Shown here piece after piece: positions 29,016-32,715 of a stretch of DNA of 64,000 bases; within the stretch, counting starts at the first letter, position 1, and each line of letters opens with the position of its first letter. The DNA is from Escherichia phage PECP20, in the sequence record OQ873415.1. One strand, 5' to 3'. Under the pieces are notes generated by a model. The model did no database searches. It was not told the origin of the DNA and saw nothing but the letters and a program-made list of their open reading frames with translations. The translations under genes and the position numbers were made by a program.

Positions 29016-30831
29016 AGGACATCCATTCTTTACGAAGTTCTGAATCATCACCCAACAACATTTCAAAGAGTTCTTTCCAATTTTCAGGAAGTTTAACTAC
29101 GTCGTACACAGGGTTCTGAATCATTTCACGATACTCTGACTTTTCAAGGGAGCCTAATCCCTTGATGTATCGAATACTATGCTTAGGCAGTGTATCTTTA
29201 ACTTCTTCATACTCAGCTACAGTATAAAACCATTTTTGAGTTTTGCCAATTTGTGCAATAATTACAGGTGTTTTAACAAAGCGAATACGTCCTTGTTCAA
29301 ACAATTCAGGCCAATTACTAAAGAAAGCAAGCAAAGCCGGATAGATACTTCCAAGACCGTCATGATCGGCATCGGTCATAATTGCAATATTACGATAGTT
29401 CGTATTCTCTGCCTTTTCACCAAGAATAAGACCTGTGATAGCACAGATATCGAATAACTCTTTGTTCTTCATCATATCAGCATATGACATACCCCAGCTA
29501 TTCATCACCTTACCACGTAATGGGAATCCACCGTGTAGTTCACGGTCACGAACATCAATGAGATATCCAATTGCCGAATCACCTTCTGTTAAGAACAATG
29601 TCGTATCTGCATCTTTACCACATTGGTTAGCTTTAATATGCTTATGAACCTTAGCTTTAGTTGCCTTTTTAGCTGCTTTAGTTTCTGCAGCCTTTTCTGC
29701 TGCCAATTTACGAGCTAATGCTGCTTCAACAATAGGCATAATCAAGGCTTCGTTTTTAAGAAGTGCCTGGGCAATTTTCTTAGCATCTAATTGGATATGA
29801 TTACGAATATCACCATACGTTGACGTTAAACGTTCTTTAGTCTGAGAATCAAAACGCATGTTGCTCATGTCTCGAATAAACATCAACATTGTGAGGCATT
29901 CTTTAACACGAGCTTTAGTGACTTCAATACCCTTATATTTCTTTTTAATACCTGGCAAAAGATGTTCGCAGATATCATCCATTACACATTCAACATGATG
30001 ACCACCATTTTTAGTATGGATGTTATTCACATAAGTTAAATGACGGAAGCCATCTGGTGATGTTGTGAATGCTATAGAGACTTTATCATTTTCTTGAATG
30101 ATGTTATCTTCACCAAATTGTTTAGCAAATCGTTTAAAATTACCATCGACCTTTTTACCATTAAATGTGAACTTGATATCAGGATAAACGACTGCCAATG
30201 TTTGAAGTCGATCTAAAGTAATATCTAAATAAATTTGAGATAAATTATGCTCTTCAAATGAAGTGAAATCAGGAGTGAAGATTACTTTAGTGCCTTTACC
30301 TTTAGATTTCTTAGAAGACCATGATTTGTTTTCCATTCCGTTTGAACAGTTAACAGTGATTTCATTTTCGCCATCTGACGTGATGCCTGTAAACAACGTA
30401 GAGAAGATATTAGTTAAACTACTCCCGACGCCGTTCATACCACCAGTCTTGCGTTCAGAGTCATCACCAAAGTTACCACCGGCCTTTGGAATAGTCCAGG
30501 CTGCTACAGGCCCAGGAATTTGTTCACCTGTTTGGTCGGTAACTAAACCTTGAGGAATACCACGTCCGTTATCTTCCACCGAAACTTGATTATTTTTAAT
30601 TTGCACATCAATTTTATTTGCAAACTTAAATGATGTACGAATAGCTTCATCAACCGAGTTGTCAATAATCTCATCGATTAATTTAACCAGGCCAGGAACA
30701 TATTCAACTTGTTGATATTTACCAAACAAAAAACGCTCGTGGGCTTCTTTAGCAGAAGAACCAATATACATACCACTACGTTTCTTAATATGTTCTACAT
30801 CTGACAATACCTTAATTTCATTTTTAATCAT
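29014..30831 (-). CDS. 39: DNA topoisomerase II large subunit, unsplit 39+60 fusion
   Basis: 605 aa single ORF; GyrB-like ATPase N-terminus plus TOPRIM/C-terminal region that in T4 is encoded by separate gene 60. Confidence 0.9.
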   Translation of the reverse strand: MIKNEIKVLSDVEHIKKRSGMYIGSSAKEAHERFLFGKYQQVEYVPGLVKLIDEIIDNSVDEAIRTSFKFANKIDVQIKNNQVSVEDNGRGIPQGLVTDQTGEQIPGPVAAWTIPKAGGNFGDDSERKTGGMNGVGSSLTNIFSTLFTGITSDGENEITVNCSNGMENKSWSSKKSKGKGTKVIFTPDFTSFEEHNLSQIYLDITLDRLQTLAVVYPDIKFTFNGKKVDGNFKRFAKQFGEDNIIQENDKVSIAFTTSPDGFRHLTYVNNIHTKNGGHHVECVMDDICEHLLPGIKKKYKGIEVTKARVKECLTMLMFIRDMSNMRFDSQTKERLTSTYGDIRNHIQLDAKKIAQALLKNEALIMPIVEAALARKLAAEKAAETKAAKKATKAKVHKHIKANQCGKDADTTLFLTEGDSAIGYLIDVRDRELHGGFPLRGKVMNSWGMSYADMMKNKELFDICAITGLILGEKAENTNYRNIAIMTDADHDGLGSIYPALLAFFSNWPELFEQGRIRFVKTPVIIAQIGKTQKWFYTVAEYEEVKDTLPKHSIRYIKGLGSLEKSEYREMIQNPVYDVVKLPENWKELFEMLLGDDSELRKEWMS

Positions 30832-30853
30832 GTTGTCTCCTCGTTATGAAGGT

Positions 30854-30880
30854 ATTCTATCATCCGAAATCTAAAGCAAA
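30854..30880 (-). promoter_or_regulatory. Middle (MotA-dependent) promoter for gene 39: MotA box TTTGCTTTA, 12-nt spacer, -10 TAGAAT
   Basis: Minus strand TTTGCTTTAgatttcggatgaTAGAAT; matches (a/t)(a/t)(a/t)TGCTT(t/c)A consensus; ~20 nt upstream of gene 39 ATG. Confidence 0.45.
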
Positions 30881-30882
30881 AA

Positions 30883-30894
30883 GGGCCGAAGCCC
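30883..30894 (-). terminator. Terminator hairpin whose U-tract overlaps the MotA box of the gene 39 middle promoter
   Basis: Minus strand GGGC-UUCG-GCCC followed by UUUUUGCUUUA. Confidence 0.5.
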
Positions 30895-31317
30895 TTATTT
30901 AAATTTAATTTTCTGAAGTGCATCAATTGCAGCCAAACGCCCTTGTTCACTTTTAACCGTAATGACCACATCACCTGATACGATCACTGAACCATCAACA
31001 AATTCTATAGAGCCTTTTTTGAAATCGACAGCTGTATCTGATTCCGGAACTTCTTCAAAGAATTTAAATTCTGCACCATAAATCAGAATATCACCTTGCA
31101 TACTAATGATTGTACGTCCAGGTCCATCGGTTTCAGCGGCAATCATTGAAACACCGTAGCCAATCATCTCTTCTACAATAAAATCTCTTGATAATAAAAC
31201 TGTATGCAGAGTAGTGTTAAGACGTTTACCAGTTGTATTAAGAATTCTCAAGAAATTATCTTCTTGACCTTTGATAATACGATATTTCTTACCAACTTCA
31301 AAACCTTTAAAAGCCAT
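30895..31317 (-). CDS. hypothetical protein (39.1/goF region)
   Basis: 140-aa ORF; terminator hairpin directly after stop. Confidence 0.5.
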   Translation of the reverse strand: MAFKGFEVGKKYRIIKGQEDNFLRILNTTGKRLNTTLHTVLLSRDFIVEEMIGYGVSMIAAETDGPGRTIISMQGDILIYGAEFKFFEEVPESDTAVDFKKGSIEFVDGSVIVSGDVVITVKSEQGRLAAIDALQKIKFK

Positions 31318-31319
31318 AA

Positions 31320-31499
31320 TTATCCCTTCTTAAGTAAGTCGTAAAAACCACCATTCACATGTTTAGGAGCAGAAACCCGACGAGTAGACAGACGATGACA
31401 TTCAGGGCAAACATCGTTTTCTCGTTCAGAAATCCTTTTAATTTTTTCATATTCATGGCCACAATCTTCAGATTGACATTTATAGTCGTATAACGGCAT
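31320..31499 (-). CDS. small zinc-ribbon protein (59 aa)
   Basis: Hand-translated: MPLYDYKCQSEDCGHEYEKIKRISERENDVCPECHRLSTRRVSAPKHVNGGFYDLLKKG; CxxC...CxxC; not in ORF track (below size cut-off). Confidence 0.45.
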   Translation of the reverse strand: MPLYDYKCQSEDCGHEYEKIKRISERENDVCPECHRLSTRRVSAPKHVNGGFYDLLKKG

Positions 31500-31501
31500 T
31501 A

Positions 31502-31924
31502 TTATTCCTTAAAATGTGCTTTCAACATTTGATACAAAGACCATGCCTGGTCGTTATTTTCGATAGTAACTTTCATTACTGGGAATTCTGTGAAATCTTC
31601 TATCTGTTCTTGCTCTTCAGATGCTTGATATGGATTTCCAACTTCATCAAAAAACTCTGCTTCACTAGTAGAGAGCCAGATAAAGTTTTCATCAAGAATA
31701 TCACCACCAGTTGCGTATCCAACCATGCCAGTAGATGTCACAATTTTAGTAGGTCGTCCAAGATGGTCAACATCTAATACTTTAAATGGTTCCATGCCAA
31801 GACGTCGTGCATAAATCCCATTATCAGTGTGGTTTTTAATAAACTCTTCTTGGGCACGTTTATCTTTAAATTGGTACCATGAGTTAACGCGGAATTTATT
31901 AGCCATTAGTAAGTTTCCTTCCAA
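31502..31924 (-). CDS. hypothetical protein
   Basis: 140-aa ORF, coupled to flanking ORFs. Confidence 0.5.
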
Positions 31925-32178
31925 TAAGTTGTACCGTTTTCAGTGATTTCACGGAAGATACCATAGATAGGCATTTCATCACCGAGTTTTTCGTAAACGT
32001 AAACCACTTCAGTGTAGCATAAAAATTCAGTCCAGTTTTTCTGTACAACAACTAAATCAGGATTAAACAGAACATCTTCAAACTCATCGATGTTTGAATC
32101 AGTAGTTACGTTTTTAATGATTTGACGTTTCATAATATTCTCCTCTTGTTTTGATAGGTCTATAGTATCATAGACCAT
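31906..32178 (-). CDS. hypothetical protein
   Basis: 90-aa ORF with early promoter at 32161-32190. Confidence 0.45.
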
Positions 32179-32190
32179 AGTTGTTGTACA

Positions 32191-32715
32191 TCATTTTAGC
32201 AAAATAAAATCAACTTGTTCTGCCAATGAACGTCTAAACATTAATTGACAACTTCCGAGGATGAAATCAGGTGCTTCATAGACCGCGATGTAGTATCCTT
32301 TAGCTTTCAAGAGTTCAACATCCACCTGGTCATCAAACCATGCATAAACCGCGTCAACGCTTTCAAATCCAAAATAGAACCCTTGAGCCCAATCTTCACT
32401 CAATTCAAATGTGTACTCAATTCTATGGTATCTTAAGATATTTTGTTCAAGAAGTTTGTCTTCATTTACTGTAGGACGATTAGGGACATTATAGTTGTCG
32501 CCGTGATGGTAGAAGTTACCTGAGATTATTCCATGTTTATCAAGGAACTCCCATGTTTCTTCAGAGTTGTCAGTGCCAGACCAACCGTAAGGTGAGCGTG
32601 GTTCTTTATTCCAAGAGGTTTCCCAAATTCTGACGGCTTTACCGTCTTCGATAGCAATTCCTGGTAATGATTCACGTTGAGTACAAAAACTACGTTCTAC
32701 GCGGTAAACTAACAT
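32191..32715 (-). CDS. hypothetical protein
   Basis: 174-aa ORF, Trp-rich. Confidence 0.5.
   Translation of the reverse strand: MLVYRVERSFCTQRESLPGIAIEDGKAVRIWETSWNKEPRSPYGWSGTDNSEETWEFLDKHGIISGNFYHHGDNYNVPNRPTVNEDKLLEQNILRYHRIEYTFELSEDWAQGFYFGFESVDAVYAWFDDQVDVELLKAKGYYIAVYEAPDFILGSCQLMFRRSLAEQVDFILLK

Follow-up and report, generated by a model that had tools for sequence, protein, structure and literature searches.

A 59-codon zinc-ribbon gene of an RB69-like Escherichia phage, assigned by sequence and gene context to T4 gene 39.2, and its likely connection with GroEL

The window analysed here is the whole stretch of 64,000 nucleotides from Escherichia phage PECP20 (OQ873415.1). It is a Mosigvirus, that is, an RB69-like T-even phage, and region 30800-32200 showed 96-97% identity to Mosigvirus genomes such as moskry, ATK47, JS09 and phiE142. 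The gene order in this part of the window is motB-like, cef, goF, 39.2, an RB69ORF005c-like ORF, a terminator-like hairpin and gene 39, which encodes the topoisomerase II large subunit (Table 1). Examination of the sequence and its translation showed that the 39.2 ORF starts at ATG 31499..31497 and, after 59 codons, ends at TAA 31322..31320, yielding the product MPLYDYKCQSEDCGHEYEKIKRISERENDVCPECHRLSTRRVSAPKHVNGGFYDLLKKG; the coordinates, the strand and the hand translation given in the initial annotation were all exact on re-translation. As had also been claimed, the ORF occupies the whole interval between two neighbouring ORFs; both of these are on the minus strand, and a 2-nt spacer lies on either side. 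Its stop had been placed next to the following stop, which is wrong, since it abuts the start of the next gene (ATG 31317), and it is the 39.2 ATG that abuts a stop, that of the preceding goF (31502..31504). The ORF is genuine and is absent from the ORF track because, at 59 codons, it is one codon below the length cut-off, showing that a 60-aa cut-off hides functional T-even genes. Its description as unlisted was accurate for this first-stage ORF track only; most of the related GenBank/RefSeq records do carry an annotation for it. The TTTAAGGAATAAT block that precedes the 39.2 ATG showed no variation across the window, RB69, T4, T4 GT7 and RB32, and in the ATK47 and ATK48 records a 'terminator' is annotated at the place corresponding to the hairpin. 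Since a promoter scan found 13 sites compared to 10.4 expected, no promoter is claimed.

Table 1. Features in and around the 39.2 gene of the window
Feature	Position	Strand	Remarks
Terminator-like GC hairpin and T-run, end of the cef–goF–39.2–ORF005c unit, before gene 39	30881..30896	-	
RB69ORF005c homolog (distant goF-like), 3' neighbour	30895..31317	-	ATG 2 nt past the 39.2 stop
39.2 CDS (nwgI ortholog, RB69-type)	31320..31499	-	59 codons + TAA
C-terminal motif APKHVNGGFYD, residues 44-54	31338..31370	-	Counterpart of FmdB-family 'FKGxGFYsxD'
Second zinc knuckle C31-PE-C34 (CxxC)	31398..31409	-	CPEC
First zinc knuckle C8-QSED-C13 (C-x4-C)	31461..31478	-	Kept in all T-even-type alleles
goF (comC-alpha), 5' neighbour	31502..31906	-	Stop 2 nt before the 39.2 ATG; RB69 goF annotation; phrog_622 and goF PHROGs
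Shine-Dalgarno AAGGA, within the last goF codons	31506..31510	-	6 nt 5' of the 39.2 ATG

Both ORFs flanking 39.2 matched phrog_622 (goF-like), with E values of 4.5e-19 for 30895-31317 (-) and 5.5e-40 for 31502-31924 (-), and BLASTP between these two 140-aa ORFs detected no significant similarity (E 0.23). They appear to be distant goF-like paralogs that bracket 39.2 in Mosigvirus. T4 lacks the downstream goF-like ORF. As for the start of goF, the mechanical ORF list uses TTG 31924 (-), which overlaps the end of cef, and the RB69 annotation uses ATG 31906 (MANKF...).

The window protein was 100% identical to RB69p006 of phage RB69, which is described in the RB69 record as 'similar to T4 accession AAD42464'. 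It was 80.7% identical to an RB32 protein that is there named '39.2' and 82.5% identical to the protein of phage T4 GT7, in which the ORF is intact at 58 codons. The order goF–39.2–(ORF)–gene 39 is common to moskry, RB69, RB32 and T4. In T4, RB32 and RB69 the 39.2 gene lies directly downstream of goF, and its location between goF and gene 39, all on one strand, is conserved. Based on this protein identity and the goF/gene 39 context, we assign the window ORF to T4 gene 39.2 (nwgI), as its RB69-type ortholog. The gene is an ordinary one, known before and annotated in most relatives; Mosigvirus records name the product either 'zinc ribbon domain protein' or 'FmdB-like transcriptional regulator', and the characterisation of the T4 ortholog dates from 2012. 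More distant Straboviridae carry a homolog of 57-65 aa, which lies near the topoisomerase II large-subunit gene in Moonvirus, in Krischvirus ECD7 (annotated 'gp39.2') and in Pseudotevenvirus Miller; in the T4-like Muldoonvirus it lies within the same dda/dexA–motB–cef early block, the topoisomerase gene being outside the stretch read.

The window protein exceeded the curated thresholds of two zinc-ribbon models, which supports the FmdB-like assignment made in the initial annotation. It scored 49.3 bits on PF09723 (Zn_ribbon_8; cut-off 34.4, E 5e-13), with residues 1-42 aligned to positions 1-40 of the 41-position profile, and 48 bits on NCBIfam TIGR02605 (FmdB family zinc ribbon protein, CxxC_CxxC_SSSS; cut-off 31.3). 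Residues 1-8, MPLYDYKC, carry the N-terminal family signature MPxYxYxC, and the APKHVNGGFYD motif aligns with the family consensus and is conserved in the Moon, ECD7, Muldoon and Miller orthologs. The protein had been described as having two CxxC pairs, which holds for C31-x2-C34 and not for the first pair, C8-x4-C13; all four ligands are present, and the spacing of the first knuckle is atypical for the nominal CxxC...CxxC arrangement.

A search for homologs with the single sequence gave just 8 clusters, and a profile search was therefore used. By tblastn, the 39.2 protein was found in 955 phage records. The initial annotation had suggested conservation across T4-like genomes as a check and had named a lack of conserved Cys pairs in related phages as contrary evidence; the Cys pairs were not lost. 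C8, C13, C31 and C34 were kept in 11/11 distinct T-even-type proteins. In alignment A3, C34 was invariant and C31 almost invariant, and the second knuckle was C-x2-C in 47 of 57 distinct homologs. The divergent Straboviridae have four Cys/His ligands at variable spacing, the first knuckle being C-x2-H in ECD7 and Muldoon and C-x-C in Moon, and the Miller ortholog has C-x-C at the second knuckle. The occasional use of His as a ligand is consistent with a structural zinc site and, because the ligands are conserved and Cys is replaced by His in orthologs, we infer that the 39.2 protein coordinates zinc by four ligands. Binding of zinc has been demonstrated for another member of the family, Ruc. 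The Straboviridae set, being derived by tblastn, is free of MPLYDYKC seeding bias. The viral_contigs loci were seeded with this peptide, so that conservation of the N-terminal motif among them is partly by construction. FmdB-family genes starting with MPxYDYxC were seen in many unrelated phages and viral contigs, including IMG/VR loci such as L084-L085, often with longer tails (75-140 aa). In Serratia phage IME250 (Ackermannviridae, L090 2001-2204) such a frame is unannotated and adjoins a gp33-like late-transcription gene. When the window was scanned in six frames for C-x2-4-C ... C-x2-C, the pattern turned up in three segments that were free of stops over 40 aa or more, one of which is 39.2.

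The length of the 39.2 ORF by itself is not beyond chance: in first-order Markov simulations of the window, ORFs that begin with ATG and reach 59 aa or more numbered ~44 per 64 kb. With ORFs of this length so frequent, and with frameshifted 39.2 alleles present in the T4 reference as well as in the records from which P0007 and P0008 derive, the ORF could be read as a chance ORF in AT-rich DNA or as a functionless gene in decay. Against this, a Nei-Gojobori analysis of 21 unique T-even-type alleles gave a median dN/dS of 0.05 and a maximum of 0.175. Between the window and RB69 there were 5 synonymous and 0 non-synonymous differences, and between the window and T4 GT7 ~24 synonymous and 13 non-synonymous differences (ω ~0.07). 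These results indicate that 39.2 is under strong purifying selection. In addition, the family models were passed at E ~1e-13, the ribosome-binding site is conserved, and deletion of 39.2 in T4 has a phenotype. Because of the family scores, the breadth of the tblastn matches and the low dN/dS, 39.2 is more than a chance ORF, and the conservation data exclude that reading, to which we give next to no credence. Two overlapping ORFs, at 31355..31462 (-, alternative frame) and 31359..31493 (+, antisense), were rejected as coding because the sense frame has a dN/dS of ~0.05.

The 39.2 frame is intact, at 58-59 codons, in T4 GT7, RB32, RB69 and the window. The T4 reference NC_000866 (locus L003, 3640-3860) has one extra T after GTTTCCGC compared to T4 GT7 (L005, 401-577), and because of this the annotated T4 reference 39.2 is only 45 aa. 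The T4 GT7 record carries no annotation of its intact ORF. In P0007 (Shigella phage vB_SsoM_113) and P0008 (Salmonella phage Manna), 39.2 is frameshifted after 'VCP' and enters an alternative frame (…NVIVCLLVGLLLLSM), the window equivalent of which is 31355-31462 (-); these frameshifts are either sequencing errors or occasional gene loss. At the adjacent T4 gene, 39.1, the T4 reference (L003 3399-3660) has a 65-aa 39.1 preceded by a separate 24-aa ORF, and in T4 GT7 (L005 580-840) there is one 86-aa ORF (MKYINRSIAALVLAVSLIGCTDAD...), which contains a lipobox-like LIGC. Gene 39.1 may therefore encode a lipoprotein whose frame is broken or wrongly annotated in the T4 reference.

Structure prediction with AF2 from a 68-sequence alignment gave strands at residues 3-8, 16-20 and 37-41 and a helix at 52-57 (mean pLDDT 67, pTM 0.38). 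This three-stranded sheet with a short C-terminal helix, predicted with moderate confidence, is compatible with a zinc ribbon. A PDB sequence search with the 39.2 protein returned bL31 alone (E ~0.3), a generic zinc-ribbon resemblance, and Foldseek against PDB with the model (pLDDT 67) returned nothing below E 0.39, the top matches being an MCM zinc subdomain, aRF1 and RbpA.

The product name 'FmdB-like transcriptional regulator' would make of this protein a small zinc ribbon that, by binding to DNA or RNA polymerase, adjusts the early or middle transcription of the phage. The name belongs to the best PHROG (phrog_1076) and is carried by many records, including RefSeq; furthermore, the neighbouring motB, cef and goF genes encode transcription/RNA modulators, and the weak Foldseek matches include the RNAP-binding RbpA (E at least 0.39). 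However, the Foldseek matches are all non-significant, and the label was taken over from the family name rather than from a test. The family name 'regulatory protein' itself goes back to the gene neighbourhood of the original fmdB and is not known to rest on a demonstrated activity. Beyond the ribbon, no DNA-binding domain was detected in the protein: the zinc-ribbon model alone was significant in Pfam, NCBIfam and PHROGs, and neither these collections nor the PDB sequence and Foldseek searches revealed a recognisable DNA- or RNAP-binding domain. Moreover, the two family members for which experimental data were found, T4 Gp39.2 and Ruc of M. tuberculosis, act on chaperones. We therefore regard a role in transcription as improbable.

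For T4 Gp39.2, the genetic and biochemical data described in PMC5153855 suggest that GroEL is shifted to an open conformation that can bind host and phage co-chaperones, and according to the same account deletion of T4 39.2 fully blocks growth on specific groEL mutant hosts; the finding is also summarised in PMC4396842. The effect on GroEL/GroES reported for T4, which includes suppression of groEL/groES mutants, is allele-specific. In PMC9697503 (Table S2), the T4 39.2 mRNA is placed in the early class. Against a shared function, ~18% of residues differ between the window protein and the T4 protein, and in one proteome the T4 protein was undetected by MS (Class_P = NA), the T4 gene table of that study listing the truncated 45-aa 39.2 only (PMC9697503). 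The RB69 39.2 product and the window product have the same protein sequence. In the 2012 study by Ang and Georgopoulos in Genetics, the selection reportedly recovered the RB69 gene first; a literature search pairing RB69 39.2 with groEL44 gave no match. By analogy, we infer that the GroEL function of T4 is carried over to the window allele, and we consider it likely that 39.2 of the window encodes a T4-like, GroEL-modulating early zinc-ribbon protein, as the RB69-type ortholog of T4 39.2.

In the mechanism that we propose, cef, goF, 39.2 and the next ORF would probably be transcribed as one early, tightly packed minus-strand unit, and translation of 39.2 would start at a ribosome-binding site of its own, AAGGA. 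With its 59 residues, the product would fold into a three-stranded zinc ribbon held by C8/C13/C31/C34, followed by the conserved short tail APKHVNGGFYD and then, possibly, by a C-terminal helix. This protein would bind or otherwise bias host GroEL toward the open state that accepts co-chaperonin (GroES or phage Gp31), and thereby would aid GroEL-dependent folding, that of the major capsid protein in particular, where the GroEL/GroES of the host is poorly suited to the phage. The T4 capsid protein gp23 is the classic folding client that depends on Gp31/GroES.

In the other characterised family member, Ruc (Rv0991c) of M. tuberculosis, a zinc-binding ribbon is joined to a disordered tail. According to PMC7448276, Ruc acts as a redox-activated holdase, DnaK co-purifies with it, its gene shares regulation with hsp60/hsp70, and in some phyla this gene lies in the neighbourhood of groES/groEL. 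If the phage protein worked in the same way, oxidation of its four Cys residues would free the zinc, and unfolded clients would be bound and then passed to DnaK. The two proteins are related at the family level. Ruc 1-49, reconstructed from the cloning primers in PMC7448276 with 44/49 residues recovered, scored 49.4 bits on PF09723, and the phage-seeded profile recovered, with E 1.6e-11, an actinobacterial Ruc-like protein that has 59% identity to Ruc 1-49 and that matched the window protein pairwise with E 5e-9; the direct identity between the window protein and Ruc is low (23% over 35 aa). However, the holdase activity requires the long disordered C-terminal tail, and Ruc 1-49 alone is inactive (PMC7448276). 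The disordered hydrophilic tail is absent from the window protein, which ends ~9 residues past the equivalent of Ruc G49, with a helix predicted by AF2 at residues 52-57, and because of this absence a Ruc-like holdase role is unlikely. Likewise, the single His ligand in ECD7 and Muldoon is easier to reconcile with a structural zinc site than with a thiol switch, and the T4 genetics point to GroEL in an allele-specific manner. Taken together, we hold out little prospect for the holdase reading and retain modulation of GroEL as the preferred function.

Since Gp39.2 and Ruc both work in chaperone networks, the label 'FmdB-like transcriptional regulator' is probably misleading; the RefSeq/PHROGs product name conflicts with the family's only experimental data, which point to chaperone modulation. 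More tentatively, the conserved FmdB-family zinc ribbon with its GFY motif might serve ATP-dependent chaperones in general, as a module that docks onto or modulates them, and the phage protein would be a minimal, tail-less form of this module. If this were true, the regulator name would be wrong for thousands of phage and bacterial genes. Within the library searched, no paper named both Gp39.2 and Ruc, which is not proof that the link went unnoticed, and the Ruc paper (PMC7448276) nowhere mentions phages. This family-level link, together with the misleading product name, is the sole mildly new angle of the analysis, and the consequence for the window itself is small, the gene being annotated already in most relatives.

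Compared to the FmdB family as defined by PF09723 and TIGR02605, the window protein is above both cut-offs and matches the full-length domain, but it has a two-residue insertion in the first knuckle (C-x4-C), is minimal in length and is without the low-complexity tail. With Ruc it shares PF09723 membership, the N-terminal MPxYxYxC, the FKG(GFY) motif and four Cys in the same register (Ruc C8/C11/C29/C32), and both Ruc and Gp39.2 are tied to ATP-dependent chaperones. In contrast, Ruc has a disordered tail of ~60 residues where the phage protein is tail-less, its first knuckle is a canonical CxxC instead of C-x4-C, and it is a cellular protein that binds DnaK, whereas the T4 ortholog of the phage protein acts on GroEL. 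The closest known system is T4 Gp39.2 (NwgI) itself, which has ~81-83% identity to the window protein, a nearly equal length (58 aa compared to 59 aa), the same C-x4-C and C-x2-C ligands and GGFYD tail, and the same slot between goF and the topoisomerase gene 39, with early transcription in T4. The window protein differs from it by one extra Lys near the C-terminus and by about ten substitutions, such as GH versus AK after C13 and STRR versus AVRL, and the locus differs in that Mosigvirus has a goF-like 140-aa ORF after 39.2 where T4 has 39.1. Gp31 of T4 and CocO of RB49 are likewise small phage proteins that adapt host GroEL to the needs of the phage. Gp31, a heptameric lid with the GroES fold, takes the place of GroES, whereas Gp39.2 is an unrelated zinc ribbon that appears to tune the conformational equilibrium of GroEL and is non-essential on wild-type hosts.
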